The notes below the pieces were generated by a model. It saw only the letters and a program-made list of their open reading frames with translations, ran no database searches and was not told the DNA's origin. Shown here in pieces: positions 1 to 46,888 of a DNA stretch of 64,000 bases. This DNA is from Candidatus Omnitrophota bacterium. Lineage in GTDB: Bacteria; Omnitrophota; Gorgyraeia; Zapsychrales; Aceulaceae. Position numbers and translations under genes: made by a program. The DNA is taken from positions 87,084 through 151,083 of the forward strand of contig JAKQPK010000023.1 in NCBI GenBank assembly GCA_029564765.1, in the 5' to 3' direction. Each line of letters begins with the position of its first letter. Positions within the stretch are counted from its first letter, which is position 1.

Positions 1-692
1 TCAACAGGGTTCATCGCTACGCCGCGCACCTTGCCGCGTCGACCAAGCCATCGCGAGCGCCCTGCTTTACCGATCGAAATAGATTCATGCTCTACATTCC
101 CGATCTGACCAATGGTCGCACGACAGGTTGTCCTGATCTTGCGGACTTCGCTAGAAGGCAAACGAATATGCGCTTCCGATCCTTCTTTTGCCATGATCTG
201 CGCCGCAGTCCCGGCGGATCGAACGATCTGACCACCTTGCCCTGGCTGCAGTTCAATATTATGGATCGCCGTTCCTAAAGGAATATTAGCGATCGGCATA
301 CAGTTGCCTGGTTTGATCTCTGCGTCTGGATCAAACGTGCTGATCACCGTATCCCCAACCTTTAATTCAAGTGGAGCGATGATATAGGACCTTACTTTAT
401 CTGGATACTCGATCAGCGCAATCCGTGAGGATCGGTTTGGATCGTATTCGATCGCCAACACTTTTGCGACAGCATCAATGCGATCACGCTTGAAATCAAC
501 CAACCGGTACATACGCTTATGTCCACCGCCACGAAAACGCATTGTAATGCGGCCATAGCTATTACGCCCGCCCGAACTATGCAGAGGTGTTAATAACGAC
601 TTCTCTGGTCTTGACTTAGTGATCTCAGCAAAATCAGACAACACAGTATGGCGCAACGCATTTGTTGTGGGGCGAAATTTCTTCAGTCCCAT
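1..692 (-). CDS. rplB: 50S ribosomal protein L2, N-terminal ~230 aa; 3' end of the gene runs off the window start
   Basis: Reverse-complement of 692 downward reads [15 protein letters not shown]..., the canonical L2 N-terminus. The ATG overlaps the rplW TAA stop. Synteny with rplW/rplD/rplC supports the call. Confidence 0.9.
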
Positions 693-6475: not shown

Positions 6476-6846
6476 TATTTATCTCGCTTTGATCCATACT
6501 TTGACCGTGATCGTTTACGGTCTTTAACGCCGGTCGTATCCAATGTTCCGCGAACAATATGATAGCGGACACCCGGTAAATCTTTGACGCGACCGCCGCG
6601 AACAAGGACGATCGAATGTTCCTGCAAATTATGTCCTTCGCCAGGAATATATGATGTAACTTCCATCTTGTTTGACAAGCGAACTCTGGCTATTTTTCGT
6701 AACGCCGAATTTGGCTTCTTTGGCGTCATGGTCTTCACTTGCAAACAAACGCCTCGCCGTTGCGGGCAGTTCGTGAGCGCCGGAGATTTACTCTTCTTGC
6801 TTTTGAGATTCCGGCTCTTTCGTATTAACTGAGAGATCGTCGGCAT
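6475..6846 (-). CDS. rpsL: 30S ribosomal protein S12
   Basis: [10 protein letters not shown]...[13 protein letters not shown]...[11 protein letters not shown] is canonical S12, and the ATG was verified in the nucleotide sequence. Confidence 0.97.
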
Positions 6847-28349: not shown

Positions 28350-29765
28350 TTATTTCTTCTTCTCGAACCGCTTCTCTGCAACGCCTAGTTGATCAGCGTC
28401 ATTGACCTTTTCTGGCTGAATCACATGTGGCGTAATAAAGATGATCAGTTCTGTTTTGGTTAGCGTTTTTTCGCTTTTTTGAAAGGCAAGACCCATGATA
28501 GGGATATCGCCAAAGAAAGGCACTTTCTTTTTTGTATCGTTCCACTGCTTCTTGATCAAACCCGCGATCACAAGTGTTTGGCCATCCTTGATCATAACTC
28601 GCGTCGATGCGGATTCCGTGCTTAGTCGCGGAACACTCGTAGACTCCACCTGCACATAATCTAAGATCGCTGTTACCTTAGGCTCAACCTCTAAGGTAAT
28701 ATATCCTAGCTTATTGACTTGTGGCGTGACCTCAAAAATAATGCCAATGTCCTTATACTCCCACCCAGAAACTTGTAATTTTGCCTGCTCTTCATTGTAT
28801 GTGTATTGAGGCAAGGGATACTGGGTGCCAACAACAATATTTGCCTTCTGATTATCAAGGGTCGTAATGCGCGGATTGGAAAGGATATCTGTCCCAGAGC
28901 GCGACTTCAGCAATTCCAGGACGGCCTGCATTTGAGAAAAATCCAAGACACCAAAAGTAAACAAATTTGTATCTGGCGTTGGGAAGTTCATGCCTGGGCC
29001 ACTTAAAAATTTATTAGAGGAATTTTCGGTGAACGGCCAATATGCCGGCCTTGCAGAACCTGAAGCGCCCGCTTTAAAAGTCCAATCAATACCCATATTT
29101 TCCGTGTTTGTCAGCGTCGTCTCAATGATCTTTGCTTCAATAAGGACCTGCGGCGTCGCGGCATCAAGACGCTCCACGACCTTAGCGACTACCTCTAAAT
29201 TGCTTGGTGTATCTCGCACGATCAGCACGTTCGTCCTTTTGTCAAAATTGACCGTACCCCGAGCTGTCAGCATCTTCTCTATTGAGCCAACGACTTGGGT
29301 CGCATCTGCATAATCTAAAATAAAGGTTTTTGTCATGACAGACTCTTGGTCTGCCAATATCAAATCATCTTCGCGCAGTTTCTTTAAGTTCTGAACCGTC
29401 GTAACGACAATAATGTTGCCGCGCTGATCATACCCATAACCATACGTCTTTAGGATCACATTGAGCGCGTCTTGCCAAGTCACATTCTTAAGCTTAATGG
29501 TCACTAACCCTTGAACATCAGGACTTGGAACAATATTGATCTTTGCCTTGTACGATAAGATTTCCAGGACATTGCGAATATCTGCGTTCTCAAAATCTAG
29601 AGTAACGCAGCCATCACAAACCGCCTCATGGGCATCAGAAGCTGTTTGGGCTGCCGCAGGCCCTGCGCTCTTCCCCGTAGTTGTATTCTCCTGCTGAGCT
29701 AAAAGCTGCTGGATCATGATCCCAAGACATAAGATACCAAAAATAGCAATAACATATTTCTTCAT
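28350..29765 (-). CDS. pilQ: Type IV pilus secretin PilQ (outer-membrane secretin family)
   Basis: Signal peptide, N0/N1-type domains (TFILDYADATQV...NVLIVRD) and a C-terminal secretin domain (VPFFGDIPIMGLAFQ...LIIFITPHVI). Confidence 0.88.
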   Translation of the reverse strand: MKKYVIAIFGILCLGIMIQQLLAQQENTTTGKSAGPAAAQTASDAHEAVCDGCVTLDFENADIRNVLEILSYKAKINIVPSPDVQGLVTIKLKNVTWQDALNVILKTYGYGYDQRGNIIVVTTVQNLKKLREDDLILADQESVMTKTFILDYADATQVVGSIEKMLTARGTVNFDKRTNVLIVRDTPSNLEVVAKVVERLDAATPQVLIEAKIIETTLTNTENMGIDWTFKAGASGSARPAYWPFTENSSNKFLSGPGMNFPTPDTNLFTFGVLDFSQMQAVLELLKSRSGTDILSNPRITTLDNQKANIVVGTQYPLPQYTYNEEQAKLQVSGWEYKDIGIIFEVTPQVNKLGYITLEVEPKVTAILDYVQVESTSVPRLSTESASTRVMIKDGQTLVIAGLIKKQWNDTKKKVPFFGDIPIMGLAFQKSEKTLTKTELIIFITPHVIQPEKVNDADQLGVAEKRFEKKK

Positions 29766-29768
29766 GCC

Positions 29769-30131
29769 TTACTCCTTTTTCAGGTTCAAGCTAAATTCCT
29801 GACCTTGTCGATACAGCGTAACTGAATCTTGATTCACCGCAGTGACCACAAAACCTCCAATACGGTCTTCGATCTTGACAACCCTGCTGTTGATGATCGC
29901 AAACCTCTCTCCGTCAGGGTCATAGATGACCCCCTCTAAAACCATGTCTGAAAATTGCAAGCTATCATCATAAGATAGGATCGCACCGCTAGATGATACC
30001 AATGGCCAAAATGGATCGCGCCGCCCATGAGAGTCATACATAAAATCTTCTTGCGCAATTGCAAGAGCGGCTGACAAAAACAAGGCCAGGGTCCCTATGG
30101 CTGCAATAAAAAATCGCTTCATCATGCTCAT
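29769..30131 (-). CDS. pilP: PilP-like pilus assembly lipoprotein/periplasmic protein
   Basis: 120 aa with a signal peptide and a C-terminal beta domain resembling the PilP/GspC HR domain. It occupies the pilP slot in pilMNOPQ order. Confidence 0.6.
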   Translation of the reverse strand: MSMMKRFFIAAIGTLALFLSAALAIAQEDFMYDSHGRRDPFWPLVSSSGAILSYDDSLQFSDMVLEGVIYDPDGERFAIINSRVVKIEDRIGGFVVTAVNQDSVTLYRQGQEFSLNLKKE

Positions 30132-30712
30132 TTCTTTTTTACAATAAAAACATTAACTGTAGCCGTGACAATATTCTTCTTAACAGAGCCGGCATCTTTC
30201 ATGATCTCAAAATTATCAATGCTCATAAACGTTTCATCATTTTCCAGCTTGTAAAAAAATGTGCCGATCTCATGGTATCCACCTTCCGCGCTTAAAGCGA
30301 TCGGTAATGAGAAATATTCGCCATGCTCATTACTCAAGACCCTTGTCTCTGCGTTATTTAAAGGTGCGATCTGGTTGATCCTGATCGAGGATTTAGCCGC
30401 CAGCCTGGAGATCTTGTCGATCATCATGATCGCTTCTTCCTTTGGCAGGATACTATTCTCAATCCTGCTTAGCTTATCCTTCAGATTGACTATCTCTTCG
30501 CGGAGAACCGGTAATCGCTGCAGATTGTCTTTTGTCTCCCTAACCCCTTGCGATGTCTCCACAATTTTCTTTCTAGTTGATGCAAGGGCTTGCAACTGAG
30601 GTCTCATGATCAAGAAAAAATCAACAATAACAATAAAAATGATCGCGAAACCTAGCAGGACATAGCTTAGCTGTCTGGTCATTTCTATTTTAGGAAGCAA
30701 TTGTTTATCCAT
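30128..30712 (-). CDS. pilO: PilO-like inner-membrane pilus assembly protein
   Basis: 194 aa with one N-terminal TM helix, a coiled-coil and a periplasmic domain. It occupies the pilO slot. Confidence 0.7.
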   Translation of the reverse strand: MDKQLLPKIEMTRQLSYVLLGFAIIFIVIVDFFLIMRPQLQALASTRKKIVETSQGVRETKDNLQRLPVLREEIVNLKDKLSRIENSILPKEEAIMMIDKISRLAAKSSIRINQIAPLNNAETRVLSNEHGEYFSLPIALSAEGGYHEIGTFFYKLENDETFMSIDNFEIMKDAGSVKKNIVTATVNVFIVKKK

Positions 30713-30713
30713 C

Positions 30714-31307
30714 TTACTTACCGCCTACTTGCAATCGAAGAACAAAATTAGCGATCTCTGTAGTGTTGACCCTGCGACGACCTGTAAAATTCATATCAGG
30801 GTCCTTCAATCCTTTCATGAACAACGAATTGCTACGTAAATTTGTACTGAACGTGTTGACGATATTCGCGTAGTCGCCTTTTTTGGAGACTACGCTTCCT
30901 TCCATGATAAAGTTTTCTTTTGTTAGCGTCATGCGCGCCAACCACGTTCCAGGCGTCATCGCATCACTAACCGCATTCAGCTTTTGGGACCACGAAAGTC
31001 GTTTTCCCGTAGTAACGCTTTCAATGGTCGAAATTTTCTGGCGCAAAACCTTCAACTCCGCCAACACAGCATTAACCTCGGTTCTCTGAGGACCAATGCC
31101 TGCGAGGGATACTTCAATAGCCTTGCACGTCCCCATTTGCACAAATATCGTTAATTGCAATACAATATTAACAATGAACAAAAATGCCAAGAAACCACCG
31201 ACAATACCTATAGAAATTTCCAGCGGAATAGCTTGGACCGCTCGATGGAAGAGTCGATATTTCTTTCGCTTAACAAGTTCTTCGGGGACAAGATTGATAT
31301 TAATCAT
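30714..31307 (-). CDS. pilN: PilN-like inner-membrane pilus assembly protein
   Basis: The N-terminus MININLVPEE matches the PilN INLLP motif, followed by a single TM helix. Confidence 0.75.
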   Translation of the reverse strand: MININLVPEELVKRKKYRLFHRAVQAIPLEISIGIVGGFLAFLFIVNIVLQLTIFVQMGTCKAIEVSLAGIGPQRTEVNAVLAELKVLRQKISTIESVTTGKRLSWSQKLNAVSDAMTPGTWLARMTLTKENFIMEGSVVSKKGDYANIVNTFSTNLRSNSLFMKGLKDPDMNFTGRRRVNTTEIANFVLRLQVGGK

Positions 31308-32391
31308 TTTTTGTCAATGCCAGTCCTAAAGCTACGCATAACTGATCAGCCTGCGCTAAAAAGTCTTGTTTATCAACGTTTCCTGAAAACTCCAAATCAG
31401 GGGACGGGGCCCAAGCCTGAACAGGAATCTCAAGTTCTTTGGTCAAGAAATCTTGAAGGCCCTGCAAGCGCGCTCCCTGTCCAGCTAGCAAAATCTTTAT
31501 AACGCGCGCCCCATCTTCTGAACTAAAATAATCGAAAGAAAGGCGGATCTCTGATACAAAATTCATTAAAACGGGATGACAGGCCTTTAGCACATCTTCC
31601 TGCTTATCTTGAGAGGAACATTTTATTTTTTCCGCTCCTTGAAAGTCCAAACTAAGCAAGCTCATGATCTTCTGGGTAAAATCTTTTCCTCCGATCGCGA
31701 TCTCTCTGGTAAAACGAGGACCATGGTCCCGGAAAATAATAATCGTCGACTTGGCCTCCCCAACGTCTAAAAAGGCAAAAGCTTCCTTTTTTACGCTAGC
31801 CGGCAAAGAAATTGATCGTGTTTCTTTTTGCCCTTCAATGACCGCATTCGCAGCAGCAATCGCATGTAAGCCTATAAAATTCGCTTGTAAACCAAGATTT
31901 GAGATCATCTGCAAGCGATCTTTAACGATGTCCTTTTTTGCTACTGCAACAAGAACCGACATCTTATTGTCTTTTATCTGGCCATCATCGATAATTTGGC
32001 AATCAATATAGATCTCATTGCTCGGGAAAGGAAAATATTTGTCAGACTCGATCAACAAAGAGTCTTTTAACTGCGTGACTGGCATGCGAGGCATTCGAAT
32101 GAAACGGATCAAGGTTCCCTGGCCTGCAAGTCCCGTAAAAACGTTTTTTGACTCACTATCAATCTTTTTCAAGAGATTCCGGACTGCTGAAAGGACATCC
32201 CGGTCATGTACAGGCTCTACAGCCCAATTCATGATCTTAACATTTTTACTAGTCCGGACAACCTCAACCGCCTTGCATTGATAATTGCCAATATCAAGAC
32301 CTATAGAGGTCTCCTGAGGTCCGACAGGGATGTATTTTCTGATTAAAGAAAAATACGTATCTATAATATTTTGAATTTTATGCTTAAACAT
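31300..32391 (-). CDS. pilM: Type IV pilus assembly ATPase-fold protein PilM (actin-like)
   Basis: 363 aa with an FtsA/actin-like fold. It starts the pilMNOPQ block downstream of the pilA terminator. Confidence 0.85.
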   Translation of the reverse strand: MFKHKIQNIIDTYFSLIRKYIPVGPQETSIGLDIGNYQCKAVEVVRTSKNVKIMNWAVEPVHDRDVLSAVRNLLKKIDSESKNVFTGLAGQGTLIRFIRMPRMPVTQLKDSLLIESDKYFPFPSNEIYIDCQIIDDGQIKDNKMSVLVAVAKKDIVKDRLQMISNLGLQANFIGLHAIAAANAVIEGQKETRSISLPASVKKEAFAFLDVGEAKSTIIIFRDHGPRFTREIAIGGKDFTQKIMSLLSLDFQGAEKIKCSSQDKQEDVLKACHPVLMNFVSEIRLSFDYFSSEDGARVIKILLAGQGARLQGLQDFLTKELEIPVQAWAPSPDLEFSGNVDKQDFLAQADQLCVALGLALTKND

Positions 32392-32496
32392 TTATTTAAT
32401 AAATATAATATTCTTATTATTTCTTATCTTATTATATTTGCTTTTACTCTCTAATCAAATATTAACTCATTTTTCTTTCTGTCCCAGAAAAACCTT

Positions 32497-32537
32497 AAAA
32501 AACAAAGAGGGCTTGGGATTTCATCCCAAGCCCTCTT
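32497..32537 (-). terminator. Rho-independent terminator downstream of pilA
   Basis: Perfect 15-bp stem (AAGAGGGCUUGGGAU / AUCCCAAGCCCUCUU) with a 3-nt loop, followed by UGUUUUUU on the minus strand. Confidence 0.8.
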
Positions 32538-32557
32538 CAAAAACCACACTTACAGCC

Positions 32558-32947
32558 TTATTGAGCTGTTAACACACCACCTGTTGTAATGGTATAGGTT
32601 GATGAACCTGTAACATTACGCGAGACAGGAGTAGCTGTCAACGTATACCCTGTAGTTGTAAATGTACAGGCGTATGAAAAACCTGACAAATTGCTTCCAC
32701 AGTACGCTGTGTTAAGATAAGGCGGTGTCGCATTCATAAGCGATGTTATTTGAGCTGGATAACTTCCGGTGTTCGCAGTGCCGTATGTTTCAGCTGCCGT
32801 AGAAATGGCGCGAAGAGTGCTCTGCGCTAAGCTATCGTTGGCTGAAAGTCTTGCGCGAAGCAAGTTCGGAATAGCGATCGCGGCTAACAACGCAATGATC
32901 GCAACAACGATCATGATTTCGACCAATGTAAAACCTTTTTTATTCAT
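32558..32947 (-). CDS. pilA: Type IVa major pilin (prepilin with class III signal peptide)
   Basis: MNKKG|FTLVEIMIVVAIIALLAAIAIP has a 5-aa leader, Gly-1, Phe+1 and Glu+5. A C-terminal Cys pair forms the D-region, and the C-terminal part is Thr/Ser/Gly-rich. Confidence 0.9.
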   Translation of the reverse strand: MNKKGFTLVEIMIVVAIIALLAAIAIPNLLRARLSANDSLAQSTLRAISTAAETYGTANTGSYPAQITSLMNATPPYLNTAYCGSNLSGFSYACTFTTTGYTLTATPVSRNVTGSSTYTITTGGVLTAQ

Positions 32948-33091
32948 TGTTCTCTCCTCCTTTCAGGATTCAGATTGAACATCTCTGAAAATCTGCCTCG
33001 CGAGAAGAGAATGAGCAGAATGTATGATGCCGTCGAAGGGATGACTCTTGCTCTGCGTGCTTTTTTTCAGGACAGTTCTAATCCTTTTTTT

Positions 33092-33120
33092 ATTTTACCT
33101 TCACCTCCTTTCATTGTCAA
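33092..33120 (-). promoter_or_regulatory. Candidate sigma70 promoter for pilA (-35 TTGACA, 17-nt spacer, -10 TAAAAT)
   Basis: Minus strand reads TTGACAatgaaaggaggtgaaggTAAAAT, about 140 nt upstream of the pilA ATG. Confidence 0.5.
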
Positions 33121-33216
33121 ACCTGTTTTAGCTTTTATTTCAAACACCCTTCAATGTAAGTATAGCACTTGAAGAAAAGAATTGACTGAAAAGATCGTGG
33201 AAAGGTTTTTGCAGGA

Positions 33217-34248
33217 CTATCTTTGGGTGAAGGTTTTCTCGAGGGATCTTTTCTGGCGATCCAAACTTTTGAGAAGGGCCTGAAGCCTGAGCGATTCCTT
33301 ATTAAGATCGTGATTTGCTTTCTGAAGATTATCGATATCAGATCGTAATAAAAGAATTGCCGGGCTCGCAGGGGCCTTGCGTATCGCTTGCCATTCTTTT
33401 CTTTTGGCGTTGAGCAATTCCTGAAGATCCTCGAGGACGGCCTGAGAGGCGACGAGAGTATCAGAGCCCTCATCAGACCCCTCCTTAGAAAAGGAGGCCG
33501 CGAGAATCTTTCCCTGCTTCTCAACAGCCGCTATTTTTTCTCTTGTACTCACCACTTCTGCTTTTAAATGTTGTCGGTCAAGGTTCGCACAGTTGTAAGC
33601 CAAATAACTATCAATGGCCTGTCGGCTAGCAGTTCTCACATCTTGCCCGAGTCGTTGCCATCCTTGATCCTGAGCGCTAAACCAAGCATCCACCCTACTT
33701 TGACCTTCATCAAGGTAGGCGTTTAGCTGCTGATCTTTTTGTTGGCGAGTAAAGAAACTTTTCTCAATGCCTTCAATGTCTTTCGTAGACTGAGATATGG
33801 TCTTTTGCAGCTCCCGGCTCAATTCTTTTTCCTTGTTAATAGAATTCGCAAGGCTCGCTTTCTCTTGGATCAGGGTCAAATATTTCTTATCAAGATTCCC
33901 AGATTGCTCAAGAAAAAACAGCATTTTCTCCTGGTGATCATTCAGCAAGGCTTCAAGTTCCCTTGATTGAGAGCTCAACAAAACAAGATCTGACAAAAAA
34001 CCATACGCCTGCTGATTTAAGTTCTGGATGGAAGTCTTAAGGCGCATATTCTCAGTTGAAAGCAAGGCATTTGTCCTCTGCAGATCCTTTGTGGCTTGAT
34101 CAAGAGCTTCTAGCCCATGATACCAGCGATCAGCCAGGCGAAAAGGGGCCTGTGCACTATCGAGAGGCTGAGCAAAAGCGCTGGATGCTGCTAGCCATGA
34201 TCCTATTAACAAAAAACAAATCAAACGCACGTTGATCCCTCGCTTCAT
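33217..34248 (-). CDS. Hypothetical secreted Gln/Leu-rich coiled-coil protein (343 aa) encoded inside the pilB-pilC-pilA region
   Basis: Signal peptide (…AASSAFA|QP), extensive heptad-like Q/L/K/E-rich sequence and an internal EGSDEGSD repeat. It starts 2 nt after the pilC stop. I recognise no family. Confidence 0.6.
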   Translation of the reverse strand: MKRGINVRLICFLLIGSWLAASSAFAQPLDSAQAPFRLADRWYHGLEALDQATKDLQRTNALLSTENMRLKTSIQNLNQQAYGFLSDLVLLSSQSRELEALLNDHQEKMLFFLEQSGNLDKKYLTLIQEKASLANSINKEKELSRELQKTISQSTKDIEGIEKSFFTRQQKDQQLNAYLDEGQSRVDAWFSAQDQGWQRLGQDVRTASRQAIDSYLAYNCANLDRQHLKAEVVSTREKIAAVEKQGKILAASFSKEGSDEGSDTLVASQAVLEDLQELLNAKRKEWQAIRKAPASPAILLLRSDIDNLQKANHDLNKESLRLQALLKSLDRQKRSLEKTFTQR

Positions 34249-34249
34249 A

Positions 34250-35458
34250 CTAACGGATAGCTGATGTTAAGCTAATGATCGGTAAAAATAACGCGATAAC
34301 GATGAACCCGACAACGATCCCCAGAAAACCAATGATCAAAGGTTCGATCATGCTGGTCAATCCAGCGACAGCCGCGTCAACTTGGTCCTCGTAGAATTCA
34401 GCGATCTTTGTCAACATGGTATCAAGTTTTCCTGTCTTCTCTCCGACGGAAATCATGCGTGTAACCATCTGCGGAAAAACACCGCTTTGGATCAACGGTT
34501 CAGAAATACTTTCTCCTTCTTGAATATGTTTTGCCGCATCCTCGACCGTTAGCTCAATAACACGGTTTCCAGAACTCTTCCCAACAATGTCCAACGCCGT
34601 TAAAATAGGCACGCCGCTTTGAATCAAGGTCGCCAATGTACGACTAAACCGGCTCAATGCAACCTTTTGGATCAGCGGCCCAAAGATAGGAAGTTTTAAG
34701 CTTATCCTATCTATCTGGAGGCTTCCAGCTTGAGTCTTTTTATAATTCACAAAAAAAACAAAACCAGCGATCCCTGCTAAGACCAACCATAAAAAGCTAG
34801 CCTTCAGATTATCGCTAATAAAAATAAGGATCTGCGTCATTCCCGGCAACTCTTTGCCTAAGGACTCGTAGATCCCCTTAAATGTTGGAACAACTTTTAC
34901 AAGCAAAAGCACTGTGATCAGAACCGCCATGGTGATGACAACGGCTGGATACACCATGGCAGACTTCACTTTGTTGCGAAGCTTTAGCGCTTTCTCCATA
35001 TAGCCAGCGATACGATCCAATAAAGCGCTCAAAGCCCCTCCTGTTTCTCCAGCCTTCACCATGCTGATAAATAAACTGTCAAAAACTCTTACGTGCTTGG
35101 AGAATGAAGCTGAGAGACTATTACCAACAGAAACATCTTCACGAACAGCGCTGATCACACTTTTAAAATATTTCTGGGTCACTTGCTCTTCCAGAGCTTC
35201 CAAGCTTTGCAAGATAGGGATCCCAGCATCGATCATCGTTGAGAGCTGTCGAGTAAAGATCACAAGGTCTTCTGATTTAACCTTTTCTTCGCCAACTGAA
35301 AAATCCTTCAAAGAAAAGCCCCGGTCTTCTTCAACTGAAATAATGATCAAGCTTCGCTTGCGTAACTCCTTAATGACAAGTTCCTTGCTTTCGGCCGTAA
35401 CTTTTCCAGTAACGGTCGTTGCGTTCTCGTCTTTTGCGATGTATTTGAATTTTGCCAT
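34250..35458 (-). CDS. pilC: Type IV pilus inner-membrane platform protein PilC (GspF family)
   Basis: 402 aa with duplicated GspF-type domains and three TM segments, downstream of the pilB ATPases. Confidence 0.9.
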   Translation of the reverse strand: MAKFKYIAKDENATTVTGKVTAESKELVIKELRKRSLIIISVEEDRGFSLKDFSVGEEKVKSEDLVIFTRQLSTMIDAGIPILQSLEALEEQVTQKYFKSVISAVREDVSVGNSLSASFSKHVRVFDSLFISMVKAGETGGALSALLDRIAGYMEKALKLRNKVKSAMVYPAVVITMAVLITVLLLVKVVPTFKGIYESLGKELPGMTQILIFISDNLKASFLWLVLAGIAGFVFFVNYKKTQAGSLQIDRISLKLPIFGPLIQKVALSRFSRTLATLIQSGVPILTALDIVGKSSGNRVIELTVEDAAKHIQEGESISEPLIQSGVFPQMVTRMISVGEKTGKLDTMLTKIAEFYEDQVDAAVAGLTSMIEPLIIGFLGIVVGFIVIALFLPIISLTSAIR

Positions 35459-35493
35459 TACATTTTTCTCCCTATTTTAAAAGCTGACGCTAA

Positions 35494-37200
35494 TCAATCT
35501 TCTGAGGTAACACGCAAAACCTCCTCGACTGTTGTCTTGCCGGACACAAGCTTTTCAACAGCGTCCTCCCACAAGGTTGTCATGCCTTTTTTCATTGCAT
35601 AATCTTTAATAGCCGATGACGATGTTCCTTTGATCAGCATTTCACGGACAGCCTCATCGACTTCTAGAACCTCTAAGATGCCCATACGGCCATAGTATCC
35701 GGTGTGACGACAAAAATCACAACCTTTCGCGGTAAACAATGCCGTTTCCGGCTTGATACGCGTCGCGAAACCTTTGAGAACATGATCAGGAATATCCGCG
35801 GGCTCTTTGCATTTAGGACAAAGTGTCCTGCACAAACGCTGCGCGCAAATCGCAATAACACTTGATGCAACCAAAAAAGATTCAACGCCCATATCCACAA
35901 GACGCGTTAAAGCGCCGGCTGCGTCATTAGTATGCAAAGTAGACAGGACAAGCTGTCCTGTTAAGGATGCCTTGATCGCAATATCTGCTGTTTCTGAGTC
36001 GCGGATCTCTCCCAGCATAACAACGTCAGGACTTTGACGCAAGATGGCACGCAACCCAGAAGCGAATGTCAAGCCAATGTCTGATTTGATCTGGATCTGA
36101 GTCAAGCCATCGACCAGATACTCAACAGGATCTTCAACGGTAATAATATTCTTATCCGGAGTATTCAACTGGCTTATGATCGAATAAAGTGTCGTTGATT
36201 TTCCGCTTCCCGTAGGACCGGTCACAAGGATCATGCCAAAAGGTCGCGCGATCGACTCCTTAAGTCTCTGGGCGGGCCCTGGAGAAAAACTTAGACCATC
36301 AAGCCCCATCGAAAGATTCATTTTGTCTAAAATACGGATAACCACTTTTTGTCCGTAGGTCGTCGGAAGAAGCGATACGCGAAAATCAACTTCGCGAGAT
36401 TGTAGGCGCATTTTAAAGCGTCCATCTTGGGGTATCTGCATCTCCGTAATGTCAACACCAGACATGATCTTGATACGAACGATGATGGCGTTCTGGTTCA
36501 CCTTAGGAATGCTCAAAACCTCCTGCAGAACTCCGTCAACCCGATAACGAACACGCGCATCCGATTCCGCGGGCTCGATGTGGATATCCGAAGCCCGCTG
36601 CTTAATGGCCTCACGGATGATCAGATCGACCATGCGCACAATAGGCGCCTGACCGCTTTCTTCCACATTGATCGCGGCGAACTCCTGAGCGCCTTTATCG
36701 TCTACGACTTGAAAATCTTCCGTATCAATGTCGCGGCTGACCTCAGCGACACTTTGGATGTCGGCTGAACCATAATATTCATCGATCGCTTGCGCGATCT
36801 TCGCATTTTCGCTCAAGACAACATCGACGTTCCTGCCTGTCAAAAGCTTTAGATCGTCAATGGCAAAAATATTAAACGGATCCGATAATGCAACGGTCAC
36901 GGTATTGCCCAACCTCGATATAGGGATGATATGATATTGTCGCGCGATTTTCTCAGAAATGATCTCTTTAAGATTAGGATCGATCTTATATTTTGCGAGA
37001 TTAATAGTCGGGATATTGAGCTCCCGAACCAAAAGGCTTAATAAGTCTTGCTCAGAGATCAGGCCTTTTTCAATAAACGCTTTTTCCAGGCTGATGGATC
37101 TCTTTTTGTGGAGCGTGACGGCCTCTTCTACATCTTTTTCTTTAATGTGATGCAGCTGTGCGAGCGCTTCAAAAACTTTTTCCTTGATCGTTTTGGCCAT
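35494..37200 (-). CDS. pilB: Type IV pilus assembly ATPase PilB (GspE family), 568 aa
   Basis: GspE N-terminal domain, Walker A GPTGSGKST, Asp/His boxes and a tetracysteine motif (CPKC...CDFC). Confidence 0.9.
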   Translation of the reverse strand: MAKTIKEKVFEALAQLHHIKEKDVEEAVTLHKKRSISLEKAFIEKGLISEQDLLSLLVRELNIPTINLAKYKIDPNLKEIISEKIARQYHIIPISRLGNTVTVALSDPFNIFAIDDLKLLTGRNVDVVLSENAKIAQAIDEYYGSADIQSVAEVSRDIDTEDFQVVDDKGAQEFAAINVEESGQAPIVRMVDLIIREAIKQRASDIHIEPAESDARVRYRVDGVLQEVLSIPKVNQNAIIVRIKIMSGVDITEMQIPQDGRFKMRLQSREVDFRVSLLPTTYGQKVVIRILDKMNLSMGLDGLSFSPGPAQRLKESIARPFGMILVTGPTGSGKSTTLYSIISQLNTPDKNIITVEDPVEYLVDGLTQIQIKSDIGLTFASGLRAILRQSPDVVMLGEIRDSETADIAIKASLTGQLVLSTLHTNDAAGALTRLVDMGVESFLVASSVIAICAQRLCRTLCPKCKEPADIPDHVLKGFATRIKPETALFTAKGCDFCRHTGYYGRMGILEVLEVDEAVREMLIKGTSSSAIKDYAMKKGMTTLWEDAVEKLVSGKTTVEEVLRVTSED

Positions 37201-37205
37201 TATTT

Positions 37206-38933
37206 CTATACTTTCTCATCTACGGCTGTCACCCGGACAACTTCTTCTATCGAGGTAAGTCCCACCGCGGCTTTTAACAAAGCATCTTCGCGCATTGTTA
37301 CCATACCTTCCTGTCGAGCCATTTCTTTTATCTTCATTTCCCCTGCATGGTCAAGGATCAGCTTTTTAACAGTGGGTGAAAGCAGCATGACCTCCGTTAT
37401 GCCCACCCGCCCTCGATATCCAAGATCGAAACAATGTCGGCACCCTTTGGCCTTAAAGAATGTTGGTTTATGTTCGAGCTTCATCGTTGAGAGGCCGAGC
37501 TTTTGGACTAAGTAATCTGGGACATCATAAGGCTCTTTGCATTTATCGCACAGCTTACGCAAAAGCCTCTGAGCAACAATGGACAAAACAGACGAACAAA
37601 TAAGAAAAGGCTCAATGCCCATATTCATCATACGAATAATGGACCCAGCGGCTGTTGTGGTATGCAGCGAACTTAAAACTAAGTGTCCCGTAAGGGCCGC
37701 CTTCACCGCCACGTCCAAAGTTTCAAAATCCCTGATCTCCCCGATCATGACAACATCAGGATCCTGGCGCAAGATCGCCCTTAAGGCTGAGGCAAAGGTC
37801 AGGTTGACCTGGGGCTTAATATTAACCTGATTGATCCCTTTCATCTGGTATTCGACCGGATCCTCAACCGTTACAATGTTCTTTTCGGTGGAGTCAATAA
37901 ACTTTAGAACAGAGTACAAGGTTGTTGTTTTCCCGCTTCCAGTCGGCCCGCAAGTCAGGATCATGCCGTGGGGTTTACGTGCGCATTCGCGTAAAACATC
38001 CAATGCTTTCGCGTTAAATCCTAATTTAGTCAGATCTAGCATAGCCGCGTTCTTATCTAAAACTCGCAAGACAACTTTTTCTCCAAAAGCTGTCGGCAGA
38101 ACGCTGACGCGGAAGTCAACCTCTCTCTTTCGGTCTGTCACAGCCTTGAAACGTCCGTCCTGAGGAAGGCGATGCTCAGAAATATCCAGATTGGACATGA
38201 TCTTGATACGGGAGACGACAGGAAAATGGAGCGTTTTTGACATCCGATCAACTTCGCGAATGATACCATCAACACGATAGCGAATGCGCAACGCTTTCTG
38301 TAAAGGCTCAACGAAAATATCGCTGGCTTTCGCAGCAATAGCCTGACGAATGATCGCATCCGTCAATCGGATCGTTGGCGCGTCCTCAGCCAAATTCTCG
38401 ATCTTCTCTTTGTCGATCTGCTTTTGACCTTCTTTGACAAGCTCCATCTCTTCCAAGCTTGAAATATCTTTCATAATATCTTCAAAGGCTTGCATTGCAT
38501 CTTCAGAATAAAAAATACCGATCGCCCTCTCGATCTCTTTAGCAGAAGCTGCAACGCCACATACCTTAAGACCTGTCAACGCATTAATATTGTCGATCGT
38601 TAGCACATCAGAAGGATTAGCCATAGCCAAAAAAAGCGTCCGGCCCAAACGAATAATAGGGACAACTTGATAATTAATGATCACGGATTTTGGCAGGATA
38701 TCAAGGACTTGCTTTTCAACTCTGGCATCAGCGATATCAAAAGATTGACGGCCGATTTTGTCAAGCATCGCTGAAACTAATTTGCTTTCTGAAACAGTAT
38801 CTGATTGAATAAGGATATCCATGAACAGAAGGTTGTCCGCTTCGGCGGTGGATACCGCGCGATCTAACGAAGCGTCATCTACGAGCTTTGCTTCCAGCAG
38901 AAAGCTTTTTAGATATTCAACGGGCGAGAACAT
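37206..38933 (-). CDS. Second full-length PilB/GspE-family secretion ATPase paralog (575 aa)
   Basis: GspE N-domain, Walker A GPTGSGKTTT, a conserved core and a tetracysteine motif (CDKC...CRHC). Tandem to pilB with a 5-nt gap. Confidence 0.88.
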   Translation of the reverse strand: MFSPVEYLKSFLLEAKLVDDASLDRAVSTAEADNLLFMDILIQSDTVSESKLVSAMLDKIGRQSFDIADARVEKQVLDILPKSVIINYQVVPIIRLGRTLFLAMANPSDVLTIDNINALTGLKVCGVAASAKEIERAIGIFYSEDAMQAFEDIMKDISSLEEMELVKEGQKQIDKEKIENLAEDAPTIRLTDAIIRQAIAAKASDIFVEPLQKALRIRYRVDGIIREVDRMSKTLHFPVVSRIKIMSNLDISEHRLPQDGRFKAVTDRKREVDFRVSVLPTAFGEKVVLRVLDKNAAMLDLTKLGFNAKALDVLRECARKPHGMILTCGPTGSGKTTTLYSVLKFIDSTEKNIVTVEDPVEYQMKGINQVNIKPQVNLTFASALRAILRQDPDVVMIGEIRDFETLDVAVKAALTGHLVLSSLHTTTAAGSIIRMMNMGIEPFLICSSVLSIVAQRLLRKLCDKCKEPYDVPDYLVQKLGLSTMKLEHKPTFFKAKGCRHCFDLGYRGRVGITEVMLLSPTVKKLILDHAGEMKIKEMARQEGMVTMREDALLKAAVGLTSIEEVVRVTAVDEKV

Positions 38934-38936
38934 ATA

Positions 38937-39380
38937 TTATCCATAATGTTTCTTGATAGCCGCGCGCACATCTGTCGCCGTGCTGACAAAAGCCTGAACG
39001 GAACAATGCGTCAGCGCCTCAACTTCTTCAATGGAGCCTGTATGCAAAGGATTGGCCATGGCCAAGGTCAAGCTAGCTCCGATCTTATCAATTGGTATCA
39101 GGCAATGCTGACGGCAGACGTCAGCAGAAACAGCTGACAAAACCTCGGGCTCTATCTCATAGTTGGATAACGGAAGATAAGGAAAACCGTACTGGGATGT
39201 CAAGGCCTGAGCAATATCCTCTTCCGAAGCGTACTTAAGGAACATCAGCGCCTCTCCCAGCAGGCCACCTTTCTCCTTCTGATACTCAATGGCTTCCTGC
39301 AACTGGTGGACATTGATCACTCCACGCTCTACAAGAAGATCCCCGATAAATTTTGGATTAATTCGCTTATATCCTTGCAT
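38937..39380 (-). CDS. Standalone T2SS-E N-terminal (MshEN-like) domain protein, 147 aa
   Basis: FIGDLLVERGVINVHQLQEAIEYQ and LLGEALMFLKYASEEDIAQALTSQ resemble the two tandem 24-residue MshEN motifs (xLGxxLLxxGLLxxxxLxxxLxxQ). It sits 3 nt upstream of the ATPase paralog. Confidence 0.7.
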   Translation of the reverse strand: MQGYKRINPKFIGDLLVERGVINVHQLQEAIEYQKEKGGLLGEALMFLKYASEEDIAQALTSQYGFPYLPLSNYEIEPEVLSAVSADVCRQHCLIPIDKIGASLTLAMANPLHTGSIEEVEALTHCSVQAFVSTATDVRAAIKKHYG

Positions 39381-39451
39381 AAGAAACCATATTGGTCTTT
39401 ATATTATCGCATGAATGGATTATTTTCATATAAAACATTAAAAATTTCAAA

Positions 39452-40558
39452 TCAAAACATTTTTCGCTGACGGGCCAAGCTCAACAAAAAACCAAACATC
39501 AAGATGCATACCAGAAAAGACGAACGTCCGTAGCTCACGAACGGCAAGGTGATCCCAACGATAGGACAAAGGCCCAGAACCATGCCAATATTGATGATAA
39601 CCTGAAGGGCAAAGATCGCAACGATGCCTGCCCCCGCCAAGTGGCTAAATTTTTCTTTAGTTTGCTCAACGGCGCGGAGCCCGGACAGGATCAACAGATA
39701 AAAACAAACAACGACAATAACGCTGCCGACAAAACCCCATTCTTCCCCGATCACGGAGAAAATAAAATCCGTATGTCGTTCTGGCAAGAAATTCAGCTGA
39801 TTTTGAGTCCCCGAAAGCCATCCTTTGCCAAAAATCTGACCAGATCCGATAGCGATCTTGGATTGAATAATGGTATAGCCAGCCCCTAATGGATCGACAT
39901 TGGGATTCAAGAAAACAAGCAATCGATCCTTTTGATAAGGCTTCATCATATGCCACAATATCGGCATCGCTAAAAGACACACGCCCAAGAACCCTCCCAA
40001 ATGCTTGGTAGAAACCCCTGCTGCAAAAGCCATAACAAAAAAGATCCCAACCAGCAAAATGGCCGTTCCAAGATCTGGTTGCTTAAAGATAAGGATCGCC
40101 GGAGCGGCCGTCATCGCGAAAGGAATAAAGAAATCAGAAACGATCGCCGGCCTTGACCATGGATTATAAAAGGAAACCTTGGGTTTATGGTCGGTATAAT
40201 AACGCGCCAACGCCAAGATCAAGGAAAGCTTCATAAACTCAGAGGGTTGAAAATTAAAACCAAAAATTTCGATCCATCGCTTTGCACCTAAAGCGTAGTA
40301 TCCGAAAAGAAAGATCGCGACCAGTAAAAAAACGTTGATGCCATAAGCAATATACGCAAGGTCATAGTATCTGCGATGGTCAACACGCCCTAAAAAAAAG
40401 ATCGCGACTACACCTAGAATAGAGAAAACGAGCTGATTATAAAATACTTCCTGTGTGACACGTGAATTCTGAAAAGAGGCGCTAAAAAGAGCAAGCAAGC
40501 CAGAAACGATGATGATCATAAGGCTAACCCACATGGCTTTTTTGAGATCTGATAGCAT
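39452..40558 (-). CDS. rodA: SEDS-family peptidoglycan glycosyltransferase RodA (FtsW/RodA/SpoVE family)
   Basis: 368 aa, polytopic. Adjacent to PBP2 and mreBCD, so assigned as RodA rather than FtsW. Confidence 0.85.
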   Translation of the reverse strand: MLSDLKKAMWVSLMIIIVSGLLALFSASFQNSRVTQEVFYNQLVFSILGVVAIFFLGRVDHRRYYDLAYIAYGINVFLLVAIFLFGYYALGAKRWIEIFGFNFQPSEFMKLSLILALARYYTDHKPKVSFYNPWSRPAIVSDFFIPFAMTAAPAILIFKQPDLGTAILLVGIFFVMAFAAGVSTKHLGGFLGVCLLAMPILWHMMKPYQKDRLLVFLNPNVDPLGAGYTIIQSKIAIGSGQIFGKGWLSGTQNQLNFLPERHTDFIFSVIGEEWGFVGSVIVVVCFYLLILSGLRAVEQTKEKFSHLAGAGIVAIFALQVIINIGMVLGLCPIVGITLPFVSYGRSSFLVCILMFGFLLSLARQRKMF

Positions 40559-42265
40559 CTAAAGGATTTCCAGGGCTTTCATTTCTTTAAGCAATTGCGC
40601 GCTAACACGGCACGCGTTATAACTAGATCCCCCATATTCTAAAAAAACACAGAATGCAATGCGTGTCTTTGCTGATGGGCAATATCCAACGAACCAGGCA
40701 TGATGTTCTTGATTCCCGGAAGACTGGGCTGTTCCTGTCTTGCCGAGAACGAGAAGGTCTTTCATGAAAACAGCGCGCGCCGTCCCTCCTTCGCCTGCGA
40801 CAGCCGCTCGCAAGCCCTCCTTAACTTGGTCTAAAATATTCTTCGGCAAATGAATAACGCGCGCTACTTGCCCCTGGGGTTGCGCATGGGCACCGATGGA
40901 TTGTGCGATATACGGTTGTATTTGGCGGCCATCTCGAGCAACGGTCGCGATCATGTTCACTATCTGGATCGGGGTCACCAAAAGATCACCTTGTCCAATA
41001 GAAAAATTGAGGGTGTCTCCCTTGCTCCATCGTCGAGCACGAAAACCATCTGGATGCGGAACATGGCCGCGTTCTTCATACGGCAGGTCGATCTTTGTAA
41101 AAACCCCTAACCCAAAAAGGCGGGCATACTCTTCCATCAGCTTAGGGCCAATGATAAGGCCTGTATTAAAAAAATAAACATTGCACGAATGACCAAGCCC
41201 CTGCGTAAAATCCTGAGCACCATGGGTATGGGAACAACGAAAGGCGCGATTTCCCAACGTATAAGACCCATGGCAAACAAAGGTCGTATGCGGATTGATC
41301 TTTTTTGTGTAAAGGCCAGCGATCGCTACCGGGATCTTGAACACAGACCCGGGAGGATACTGTCCCCGGATCGCCCGATTGAACAAGGGAGCGCGAGTAT
41401 CGGTAAAATATCGCACGCGATTGTTTGAGGCAGCCTCGCTCGCGAAATCATTAGGATCAAAGCTAGGCGCACTGACCATCCCCAGGATCGCCCCATCGTC
41501 TAAATTCATAACAATGATAACGCCTCGCTGCTCTCGCATCAGCGTCTGAGCTATCTGCTGGATACGCGCGTCAAGCGTGGTCATTACGTCTTCGCCTGGA
41601 TGAGCGACCTTCATACCTAAAACACGAACTTGCTGCCCTCGGTTATTCACCTCGATCTGAAGTCCACCATTGACACCTCTCAACATCTGATCATACTGCT
41701 CTTCGATGCCGGAATAGCCCATTACACCATCTATCGTGTAACCATATTCTTTAAGTCTTTCGATCCGTTCTTGGCTCATTTTAGCAACGTATCCTAGGAC
41801 ATGAGCCCCCGCTTCCCCAAAGGGATAATGCCTGCGAGATCGCACCTGAACGAGAAGGCCAGGAAAACGAAATTTATTCTCTTCTAAAATGATCGCTTTT
41901 TCCCGAGGAACATCCTCCGCGATCACAACAGGGGCGAACGATGCCGTTCTTTTTCTCTGATAGATCGCGTCTATCCTCCCTTGACCAAAGCCTAGGACGC
42001 TTCCCAAAAAAGAAAAGAGCTCATCTCTGTCCTGCAACTCTTGCGGGATGACCAAAACATCGAATGCGGCTAATGTATCAGCTAGGGCGATGCCGTTACG
42101 GTCCAGGATGCGCCCACGATTGGAATGCACGGGAACAACGCGGATACAATTGGAAACGCTCAATTGTTGATAGTATTCACCTTGAAAGATCTGAGTATAA
42201 CCCAAACCAACGATCAAGATGATAAAAGAGAATGTGATAATTACTTTGAAACTTTTAAGGCGCAT
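40559..42265 (-). CDS. mrdA: Penicillin-binding protein 2 (elongasome transpeptidase)
   Basis: 568 aa with an N-terminal TM helix, a PBP dimerisation domain and a transpeptidase domain containing the SVFK motif. Located next to rodA and mreD. Confidence 0.9.
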   Translation of the reverse strand: MRLKSFKVIITFSFIILIVGLGYTQIFQGEYYQQLSVSNCIRVVPVHSNRGRILDRNGIALADTLAAFDVLVIPQELQDRDELFSFLGSVLGFGQGRIDAIYQRKRTASFAPVVIAEDVPREKAIILEENKFRFPGLLVQVRSRRHYPFGEAGAHVLGYVAKMSQERIERLKEYGYTIDGVMGYSGIEEQYDQMLRGVNGGLQIEVNNRGQQVRVLGMKVAHPGEDVMTTLDARIQQIAQTLMREQRGVIIVMNLDDGAILGMVSAPSFDPNDFASEAASNNRVRYFTDTRAPLFNRAIRGQYPPGSVFKIPVAIAGLYTKKINPHTTFVCHGSYTLGNRAFRCSHTHGAQDFTQGLGHSCNVYFFNTGLIIGPKLMEEYARLFGLGVFTKIDLPYEERGHVPHPDGFRARRWSKGDTLNFSIGQGDLLVTPIQIVNMIATVARDGRQIQPYIAQSIGAHAQPQGQVARVIHLPKNILDQVKEGLRAAVAGEGGTARAVFMKDLLVLGKTGTAQSSGNQEHHAWFVGYCPSAKTRIAFCVFLEYGGSSYNACRVSAQLLKEMKALEIL

Positions 42266-42729
42266 TTTTTAAAGAAAAGGAACGCATAAGGTCCAATAGC
42301 CGTTGTTGTAATGATCTCTGGAATGGCCAGAAACCAAGCGATATCCCTAAATCCTCCCGAAGCGAAAAAAGCTGCTACAATATAAAGAATCGAAACATTT
42401 AAAGCGCTCAAAAAGAACGCAAGCGCAATCTTAAGATATAGAGCATCGATCTGAAAAATATATTTTTTAAGCAGCAAAACGATATAGGAAGAAATGATAA
42501 AAGAAAAAATATTAACGCCGAACACCCCTACCAAAAGACTGTCCTTAAGAAGCCCAGCTGCAACGGCAGCCCACAGACCATAACGCGAACCCCAGAACAG
42601 ATTGATAAAAATAACGAACAGGATCAGAAAGTTCGGCTTCACCCAGAAGCTGAAAACATGAAAAACACCTATCTCGATGAGAAAAAGCAGATAACAGCTT
42701 ATCAGGATCCATAAAGTTTTCTTGATCAT
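42241..42729 (-). CDS. mreD: Rod shape-determining protein MreD
   Basis: 162-aa polytopic membrane protein immediately after mreC. Confidence 0.7.
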   Translation of the reverse strand: MIKKTLWILISCYLLFLIEIGVFHVFSFWVKPNFLILFVIFINLFWGSRYGLWAAVAAGLLKDSLLVGVFGVNIFSFIISSYIVLLLKKYIFQIDALYLKIALAFFLSALNVSILYIVAAFFASGGFRDIAWFLAIPEIITTTAIGPYAFLFFKKCALKVSK

Positions 42730-42740
42730 AGGATATCTTA

Positions 42741-43526
42741 TTAACGATCGATAACGACAAAAACCTCTTCCAACTGCGAGAAGACGACTGCAGGCTTAAT
42801 CAGACAATCAAGCGTAGGACTTGCAAGATTTTCTTGGACATCGATAATGCGCCCGATCAGGAGCCCTTCTGGAAAAAAAGAACTGATCTTCGAGGTCACG
42901 ACAATATCACCGACCTGAACATCCGAGGTCACAGGAAGGTATTGCAAGCGACACGTCCCTCGAAGCGTTCCAGAGACAACGCCCTGATCGCGCGTGCGCT
43001 CAAGGGAAGCCGCAACGCTAAATCGAGAGTCAGTCAGCATTGTCACTTTCGCCAGCTGATCCCCGACCTCTGAAATTTTTCCAACAACCCCAGAGGACGT
43101 GACGACTGGCATTCCTTGCCGCACACCCTGTTTCTTTCCCTTATCAATAATGATAGCCGCTGACCAATTCGCCGGATCGCGCATAAGCACATGGGCTGCG
43201 ATTAAGGAAAAAGAAGACTGACGCTTAAAATCCAACAACGCGCGCAAACGGGCATTTTCTTTCAAGACCTCTTCCTGCTGCCAAGCCTGCTGGACCAAAG
43301 GCTCCATTTGTTTCTTAAAAACTTGATACTCATTATAGGTCTTGTGATAAAAAAGGATCTTTCTTATTTCTCTGAATGGGAATAACGCGACCTGGATCGG
43401 CCATGAACTCGCCTGGAGGACATCTGTTTTCAGATTAGAAAAAAGTTGCTGCGGAAGAAAAAGGCAAATAAAAGCGGTAGTAGCGATCAGGAAATAAACT
43501 AGAGCTTTCTTGGATTTCTTAAGCAC
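42741..43526 (-). CDS. mreC: Rod shape-determining protein MreC
   Basis: N-terminal TM helix and coiled-coil, with an MreC beta-domain block (GMPVVTSSGVVGKISEVG...MLTDSRFSVAA). Confidence 0.85.
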   Translation of the reverse strand: MLKKSKKALVYFLIATTAFICLFLPQQLFSNLKTDVLQASSWPIQVALFPFREIRKILFYHKTYNEYQVFKKQMEPLVQQAWQQEEVLKENARLRALLDFKRQSSFSLIAAHVLMRDPANWSAAIIIDKGKKQGVRQGMPVVTSSGVVGKISEVGDQLAKVTMLTDSRFSVAASLERTRDQGVVSGTLRGTCRLQYLPVTSDVQVGDIVVTSKISSFFPEGLLIGRIIDVQENLASPTLDCLIKPAVVFSQLEEVFVVIDR

Positions 43527-43550
43527 ATCAACTCACTACTCGTTATGCGA

Positions 43551-46791: not shown

Positions 46792-46888
46792 AGATAACTC
46801 CTTTATAAATAAATTTTTATTAAACTTATTATAAAATAAACCCCAATGAAGTAAAGAGAAGTTTCTGGAAAAAGGGCTGTCGTGAAAA

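Follow-up and report, generated by a model that had tools for sequence, protein, structure and literature searches.

A 64,000-nucleotide (nt) stretch of a Candidatus Omnitrophota genome (assembly GCA_029564765.1, contig JAKQPK010000023.1, positions 87,084 to 151,083; hereafter, the window) carries a small gene whose product consists of an MshEN domain without an ATPase, and which is the first gene of a type IVa pilus motor operon in the order mshEN, PilB-like ATPase A, PilB-like ATPase B and pilC. The small open reading frame (ORF) almost certainly encodes an MshEN-fold protein of this operon, and the chance that this free-standing protein is a detachable sensor of cyclic diguanylate (c-di-GMP) for the motor is, in our judgment, about even. 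The gene and the parts of its 147-amino acid (aa) product are as follows.

38937..39380, minus strand: standalone MshEN/GSPII gene, 147 aa plus stop, ATG start (ORF list, Pfam, PDB sequence matches, and dN/dS, the ratio of nonsynonymous to synonymous substitution rates).
39279..39350, minus strand: motif I, residues 11-34, FIGDLLVERGVINVHQLQEAIEYQ, predicted helices alpha1-alpha2, in register with MshE R9-Q32.
39264..39278, minus strand: spacer, residues 35-39, KEKGG, equal in length to the MshE spacer KNTGR.
39192..39263, minus strand: motif II, residues 40-63, LLGEALMFLKYASEEDIAQALTSQ, predicted helices alpha3-alpha4, in register with MshE R38-Q61.
38940..39191, minus strand: C-terminal T2SSE_N1-like alpha/beta subdomain, residues 64-147 (Pfam, AlphaFold2 secondary structure and family alignment).

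The small protein is a complete two-subdomain MshEN/GSPII domain. Pfam MshEN (PF05157) matched it at 61 bits against a cut-off of 23.1 over residues 64-147 and was its sole Pfam domain, the ATPase domain (T2SSE) being absent, and the PDB sequences matched by HMMER were the N-domains of PilF, Myxococcus xanthus PilB and MshE. The PilB model TIGR02538 gave 70 bits against a cut-off of 676, covering profile positions 2-136 of 564. Neither a PilZ domain nor a degenerate EAL/GGDEF domain was found in the protein by Pfam or NCBIfam, and an exact-sequence look-up of the 147 aa returned no database record. The AlphaFold2 model, built on 37 relatives with a mean predicted local distance difference test score of 85, has helices at residues 12-18, 24-37, 41-47 and 53-64, followed by the alpha/beta subdomain, and residues 1-9 are disordered. 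When this model was compared by Foldseek with MshE bound to c-di-GMP (5HTL), the template modelling score was 0.81-0.85 and the root mean square deviation 2.1 A. PilF GSPII-A, -B and -C, the N-domain of Xanthomonas citri PilB complexed with PilZ, and XpsE-N were matched as well.

The sequence-only reading of this region had claimed two tandem 24-residue motifs, each with a terminal Gln, and this was borne out by an ungapped alignment to MshE. By HMMER, residues 10-113 of the small protein correspond to residues 8-111 of the 5HTL chain with a constant offset, and MAFFT, run on the small protein together with MshE, M. xanthus PilB and PilF GSPII-A, -B and -C, opens no gap inside either motif, the Leu, Gly and Gln positions being neither shifted nor gapped relative to Vibrio MshE. 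The relaxed search pattern of Wang et al. 2016 has 22 constrained positions, and the small protein agrees with 19 of them, compared with 14 for ATPase A and 15 for ATPase B. NCBIfam NF053729.1 ('cyclic di-GMP-binding domain-containing protein, MshE-related'), a dedicated 53-position hidden Markov model of the motif with a cut-off of 38 bits, scored 60.5 bits (E 1e-16) at residues 12-63. Motif I, the 5-residue spacer and motif II occupy its positions 2-53 without a gap, and the model matches 37/37 family members tested. The motif match of the small protein is far beyond chance.

The residues equivalent between MshE and the small protein are R9/F11, L10/I12, G11/G13, D12/D14, G18/G20, L25/L27, L29/I31 and Q32/Q34 in motif I, and R38/L40, L39/L41, G40/G42, D41/E43, G47/K49, L54/I56, L58/L60 and Q61/Q63 in motif II. 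Both Gly at position 3 (G13, G42) and both Gln at position 24 (Q34, Q63) are present, and the hydrophobic triads are I12/I56/L60 and L27/I31/L41 (L10/L54/L58 and L25/L29/L39 in MshE). The positions in direct contact with c-di-GMP are all present or conservatively replaced. Binding of c-di-GMP by the small protein is plausible and somewhat more likely than not. MshE no longer binds the ligand when it carries G11L, and its binding is weakened 72-fold by G40I and 12-fold by Q61A; its guanine specificity lies in the backbone amides of the Gly and the next residue.

Both position-1 Arg residues are replaced by hydrophobic ones, F11 and L40. The sequence-only reading had noted the first replacement, which is confirmed, and had omitted the loss of the motif II Arg as well as K49 and N110 (see below). 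Its caveat on Phe is weaker than feared because PilF GSPII-B binds c-di-GMP at 6 nM with K167 and L196 at position 1, and its K167L variant at 2 nM, whereas Arg at either position-1 residue weakens binding (PMC11731258). Since this domain binds without Arg, the missing Arg in the small protein is no problem in itself. The same study extended the consensus at position 1 to R/K/L and regarded a hydrophobic side chain at this position as predicting high affinity (PMC11731258). L40 is inside this set and invariant in the family. In addition, Ile for Leu in the hydrophobic triads of PilF constructs cost only 2.4-fold.

The two ATPases encoded next to the small gene carry MshEN domains of their own.

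37206..38933, minus strand: PilB-like ATPase A, 575 aa (Pfam T2SSE and MshEN).
35494..37200, minus strand: PilB-like ATPase B, 568 aa (Pfam MshEN and T2SSE).

In both, Walker A, a Walker B-like GEIRD, the His box and the tetracysteine are intact, and both score best on TIGR02538 (PilB), below its cut-off. Conservation of the tandem pair in >60 related loci points to a motor that is heteromeric or dual. No PilT-like retraction ATPase was found in the window. The MshEN motifs of the pair are degenerate: positions 1/3..24 read Y/K..A and L/M..K in ATPase A, and ATPase B has F and E at position 3 and H and E at position 24, so that 0/4 of the Gly (position 3) and Gln (position 24) residues remain. 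NF053729 gave 21.9-24.4 bits for ATPase B, below the cut-off, and no match for ATPase A. Across the family, position 3 is K/Q/L and S in ATPase A N-domains and I/L/F and D/E in those of ATPase B, and position 24 of motif II is G/S/A and E, respectively. As these N-domains share the fold without the position-3 Gly and the position-24 Gln, folding does not depend on these residues. Nevertheless, both residues are near-invariant in both motifs of 83 orthologs of the small protein, and they are also kept in a second standalone MshEN paralog described below.

The family is widespread and conserved. The best 120 homologs are 55-98% identical and mostly standalone proteins of 146-162 aa (P0018, P0022 and P0101 have 213-221 aa), and the named members are from Omnitrophota metagenome-assembled genomes. 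The ortholog in one such genome, GCA_964486675.1, shares 98% identity with the small protein, and the operon is present there and in OY759724.1. In P0018, P0101 and P0124 (214-221 aa) an additional N-terminal four-helix bundle (MshEN_N) with an intact-looking motif lies ahead of the full domain. Matches of ~150 aa in a search of representative sequences were considered as evidence that standalone MshEN is common outside Omnitrophota, and were dropped; most of them come from contigs of short length, and a truncated GspE accounts for at least one. In the alignments of the family, L40, G42, E43, Q63 and G13 are invariant, Q34 is >=90% conserved, and I56 is invariant in alignment A1 and >=90% conserved in alignment A2.

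When the small gene was compared with its closest relative (dS 0.50), dN/dS was 0.018, equal to the 0.018-0.019 of the ATPase catalytic regions, while the N-domains of ATPase A and ATPase B gave 0.063 and 0.036, the former being the fastest evolving. This result indicates that the small gene is under strong purifying selection, constrained equally to the ATPase catalytic domains. Together with the conservation, it refutes a pseudogene or fragment reading. A decaying fragment of a duplicated pilB, or a functionless annotation artefact, might have been considered from the annotation, as JGI names the orthologs 'type IV pilus assembly protein PilB' although they have no ATPase domain and NCBI calls them hypothetical. 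This origin is extremely improbable: at least 555 genomes in a one-genome-per-species scan encode a relative, the orthologs share 58-98% identity, have lengths of 147-150 aa and keep the start and stop, and both ATPases retain their own N-domains.

The genomic context supports a link of the small protein to the motor. In the window, mreB-mreC-mreD-pbp2-rodA is followed by a 71-nt gap, mshEN, a 3-nt gap, ATPase A, a 5-nt gap, ATPase B and pilC. On the 3' side of pilC lie a coiled-coil ORF without annotation, pilin, pilM, a pilN-like gene, pilO, a T2SSB-like ORF and secretin.

39381..39451, minus strand: AT-rich intergenic region of 71 nt from rodA to the small gene, with a weak promoter-like site at 39450..39422.
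39452-44624, minus strand: elongasome genes mreB-mreC-mreD-pbp2-rodA, directly upstream of the pilus cluster (28350-39380).
34250..35458, minus strand: PilC platform protein, 402 aa (T2SSF_N/T2SSF in the ortholog of locus L003), its position kept in 64 loci.
28350..34248, minus strand: remainder of the pilus cluster, namely the coiled-coil ORF, pilin, PilM, PilN-like, PilO, T2SSB-like and secretin genes (ORFs; Pfam for secretin and T2SSB-like; Pfam matches of the L003 orthologs).

The order rodA-mshEN-ATPase A-ATPase B-pilC is kept in 82 related loci (about 80 species-level Omnitrophota genomes), and rodA adjoins mshEN in 74 of the related loci, an unusual linkage of cell-shape and pilus genes. 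The 3 nt between the mshEN stop and the ATPase A start are replaced by a 4-nt overlap in L001. The two genes also occur fused. P0127 (765 aa, L084:8001-10298) is 41% identical to the small protein at residues 4-149 and, after a low-complexity linker, 46% identical to full-length ATPase A at residues 200-758. Its gene is followed by an ATPase-B-like gene and pilC, and adjoins glycosyl hydrolase and transferase genes, not rodA. This fusion in the same operon order argues that the free small protein acts as an extra N-terminal domain of ATPase A. A physical partnership of the small protein with ATPase A is likely, and the reading that fits best is that of an additional motor N-domain encoded apart from its ATPase. 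The earlier proposal of a candidate sensor for the pilus motor is strengthened as to its motor half by the synteny, the spacing and the fusion, while the sensing of c-di-GMP is still proposed from the motif.

In 33/64 relative loci a second standalone MshEN gene (~150 aa) lies between ATPase B and pilC. It is absent from the window, where a 35-nt gap (35459-35493) is found at that place. The copy in L002 (12036-12497) scored 59.7 bits on NF053729, and in this paralog position 1 is hydrophobic in both motifs and Gly and Gln are conserved.

As to the signal itself, MshEN-PilZ fusions were found among the nearest multidomain relatives of the small protein (P0157, P0169, P0234 and P0198), with MshEN parts 41-48% identical to the small protein and canonical RxxxR..[D/N]xSxxG motifs in 4/4 examined; two are from named Omnitrophota. 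Because of these fusions and a preprint describing GGDEF domains and PilZ genes in Omnitrophota, c-di-GMP signalling seems to exist in the phylum. The covalent pairing of MshEN and PilZ echoes the complex of the PilB N-domain and PilZ of Xanthomonas. Another fusion, P0150, joins MshEN to a DnaA ATPase.

Several observations weigh against c-di-GMP sensing by the small protein. Position 1 of motif I is Phe here and mostly His or Gln in the family, outside the published R/K/L; MshE G47 is K49 (motif II position 10); and D108 of MshE, the Asp of the C-subdomain that touches guanine, is N110. PilF GSPII-A was still non-binding with all six consensus positions restored, and regained binding only once the C-subdomain and a capped helical turn were removed (PMC12002112), so the motif is necessary, not sufficient. 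Moreover, Ser put back at motif II position 1 of the truncated, consensus-restored GSPII-A abolished binding. The check for GGDEF and EAL proteins that the sequence-only reading had proposed was made on the window, where scans found no GGDEF, EAL, HD-GYP or PilZ gene; Rfam found no c-di-GMP riboswitch there, only two tRNAs. In relative loci, the GGDEF gene that neighbours mshEN is degenerate. This HAMP-GAF-GGDEF gene lies between rodA and mshEN in 27/74 relative loci and is absent from the window. In L002 it is at 6571-8004 and overlaps the small-gene start by 4 nt, and further examples are in L009 and L011-L014. It was considered as a neighbouring cyclase and rejected, as 29/29 copies have RFGDHEF, RFAEHEF or similar, not GG[DE]EF, and the RxxD I-site is mostly lost. 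For this reason, we did not count it as local cyclase evidence. From its sequence, it appears to encode a conserved GGDEF protein that is linked to the pilus operon and is no cyclase.

The division of labour between the small protein and the ATPases is also less clean than the window suggests. The earlier statement that the adjacent ATPase N-domains match the motif worse holds in the window, but elsewhere in Omnitrophota 35/40 N-domains of ATPase A and 36/40 of ATPase B match NF053729 at E<=1e-3 (best E-values in other species, 1e-14 for A and 1e-8 for B). The notion that NF053729 rejects these N-domains clade-wide was therefore dropped, although it rejects those of the window, and the degeneracy of the ATPases, with the division of labour drawn from it, rests on the Gly and Gln positions. 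Some ability to perceive the ligand may remain in the ATPases of other Omnitrophota, and PilF GSPII-C binds c-di-GMP despite Glu at motif II position 3. Over the fetched loci, identity to the window protein had a median of 62% (small protein), 29% (ATPase A N-domain) and 52% (ATPase B N-domain), a comparison biased by the choice of loci according to similarity to the small protein.

These points bear on the question of whether the small protein serves the motor structurally or as an adaptor, without binding a nucleotide. As a detached docking domain of the N1 type, it would then connect ATPase A/B to PilM/PilC or aid assembly of the A/B hexamer, with the motif-like residues kept for folding and protein contacts. 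Docking is common to this alternative and to the sensor explanation, and the ligand is the sole difference. PilF GSPII-A, with a near-consensus motif and no binding, is a precedent, and it is also the PilF domain with the best sequence score to the small protein (64 bits). The strongest invariance lies outside the ligand motif, in the QYGFPYLPL..YEI segment, CLIPIDKIG and the core of the C-subdomain; tight translational coupling with ATPase A, like the fusion, points to a stoichiometric subunit; and the lack of c-di-GMP enzymes in the window fits as well. However, residues dispensable for the fold would not be expected to be near-invariant in the orthologs and in the second paralog, the curated NCBIfam cut-off for the c-di-GMP motif is exceeded by 22 bits, and in the AlphaFold2 prediction helix alpha1 starts at residue 12, with no extended capped helix like the one that occludes the pocket of GSPII-A. 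We consider an adaptor without ligand possible, at odds clearly short of even.

A different input is suggested by the C-terminal subdomain, which contains, besides the invariant QYGFPYLPL..YEI segment, a Cys triad.

39114-39116 (C89), 39102-39104 (C93) and 39003-39005 (C126), minus strand: Cys triad of the C-terminal subdomain.

The CxxxC pair C89/C93 is invariant across 37 Omnitrophota orthologs, >=90% of which also have C126. Neither C89 nor C93 occurs in the PilB N-domains of M. xanthus and Geobacter, in the two ATPases encoded alongside or in the second standalone paralog, C126 being the only partial exception. The triad may, as far as its sequence conservation tells, be a metal or redox site. 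The protein might then sense redox state or metal through C89-x3-C93 and C126, or another cyclic dinucleotide such as 3'3'-cyclic GMP-AMP (cGAMP), and pass this to the motor in place of c-di-GMP. The family-specific conservation of the triad speaks for this, and MshEN of Vibrio cholerae binds cGAMP weakly (Wang et al. 2016). Against it, the positions whose backbone gives MshE its guanine specificity, Gly and the next residue, are conserved in the small protein, and such an input need not replace c-di-GMP binding but could exist beside it. We know of no MshEN domain that has a metal site. A different input as the actual function is quite unlikely. A broader proposal, which we regard as improbable though slightly less so, is that Omnitrophota have split a PilF-like multi-GSPII motor into separate polypeptides, where one or two free MshEN modules serve a PilB pair with degenerate N-domains and the first module joins c-di-GMP with a redox or metal signal through the Cys triad as an essential stoichiometric switch subunit.

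The explanation that we propose is that the small protein serves the tandem PilB-like motor as an additional N-terminal domain that can detach, an unfused equivalent of Thermus PilF and of the (MshEN)2-3-T2SSE proteins of Clostridia. One monomeric c-di-GMP would sit in the four-helix bundle at its N-terminus, as in MshE and GSPII-B, with the guanine Hoogsteen edges touched by the backbone amides of G13/D14 and G42/E43. Q34 and Q63 would contact ribose and phosphate, and the I12/I56/L60 and L27/I31/L41 clusters would stack beneath the bases with F11 and L40 above. The C-terminal subdomain may dock on ATPase A and/or the PilM/PilC platform. In this way, the motor, which lacks the Gly and Gln contacts in its own N-domains, would be informed in trans of the c-di-GMP level.

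Omnitrophota are uncultured, often very small and possibly host-dependent, and type IV pili are a leading candidate for their attachment or predation. If the small protein binds c-di-GMP, it would be a simple, purifiable handle on the switching of piliation in this phylum, and a natural unfused example of an MshEN module acting in trans on PilB. The sequence rules of MshEN would also widen to Phe/His/Gln at position 1, which would aid surveys of c-di-GMP receptors across genomes. Without such binding, the small protein would join PilF GSPII-A as a caution on motif-based prediction. For an uncultured phylum, the sensor hypothesis is specific and can be tested at low cost, and is unlikely to surprise the specialist.

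With regard to the rest of the window, nearly every credible ORF is on the minus strand, the plus-strand candidates being two short doubtful ORFs. Other minus-strand genes include those of the ribosomal protein, rpoB/rpoC and EF-Tu operons and of tRNA synthetases. Two minus-strand ORFs appear coiled-coil-like by eye and have no Pfam match, at 33217-34248 (343 aa) and 45988-47022 (344 aa). The former, in the interval between pilC and pilin, has an N-terminal signal-like segment, and its ortholog is detectable in the closest relatives only.

We compared the small protein with known systems. The N-domain of V. cholerae MshE (5HTL), the prototype c-di-GMP receptor, has the same fold, the same tandem 24+5+24 motif and the same Gly, Gln and hydrophobic-triad positions. 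In MshE this domain is the N-terminus of the ATPase, whereas here it is a separate polypeptide; the identity is 25%, and the stacking R9 and R38 of MshE correspond to F11 and L40. Thermus thermophilus PilF GSPII-B (8PDK), an arginine-free domain of high affinity, shares the hydrophobic position 1, with L40 as the exact counterpart of L196, and also a Glu after the Gly in motif II. It differs in being one of three domains fused in one ATPase, in the Lys at motif I position 1 (Phe/His/Gln here), and in the D266/R268 pair of the C-subdomain, which is N110/L112 here. The non-binding GSPII-A (9G1W) is the top PilF domain by score, with 34% identity, and is likewise an extra, ATPase-distal module. 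It lacks both Gln and the motif II Gly, has Ser at motif II position 1 and an extra alpha1 turn stabilised by an Ncap. Unlike GSPII-A, the small protein has the Gly and Gln, no S/T/D-x-x-E/D/Q cap signature before residue 11, and an N-terminus modelled as disordered.

The FimX-PilZ-PilB relay of Xanthomonas and Pseudomonas (7LKM) is alike in principle, as a separate c-di-GMP binder informs a PilB with a non-binding N-domain, and the model of the small protein resembles the PilB N-domain in the 7LKM complex. However, the sensor of that relay is a degenerate EAL protein bridged by PilZ, and there is no EAL or PilZ gene in this cluster. The small protein is homologous to the relay target, the PilB N-domain, not to the FimX sensor, and is not a member of the FimX system. 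Pseudomonas aeruginosa PA3740 (MshEN-xT2SSE_N1), listed as a c-di-GMP binder involved in swarming (Wang et al. 2016), is likewise a small ATPase-less MshEN module, and was set beside the small protein by its description. The C-subdomain of PA3740 is highly diverged, whereas that of the small protein is a canonical T2SSE_N1 matching Pfam.

In the open-access literature mentioning MshEN, we found no description of a separately encoded MshEN protein heading a pilus operon, nor of the Omnitrophota family. The closest architecture is that of the (MshEN)2-4-T2SSE ATPases of Clostridia, Deinococcus-Thermus and Nitrospirota, which have the same module count, with a motif-bearing distal and an ATPase-proximal MshEN. 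In these ATPases the distal module is fused, whereas in the window and in about 80 Omnitrophota genomes it is a separate gene product. The domain, the binding mode and the architectures, including multi-MshEN ATPases and the ATPase-less PA3740, are already known, NCBIfam has a model by which such proteins are named, and the Omnitrophota family is a phylum-wide unfused variant of (MshEN)n-T2SSE.

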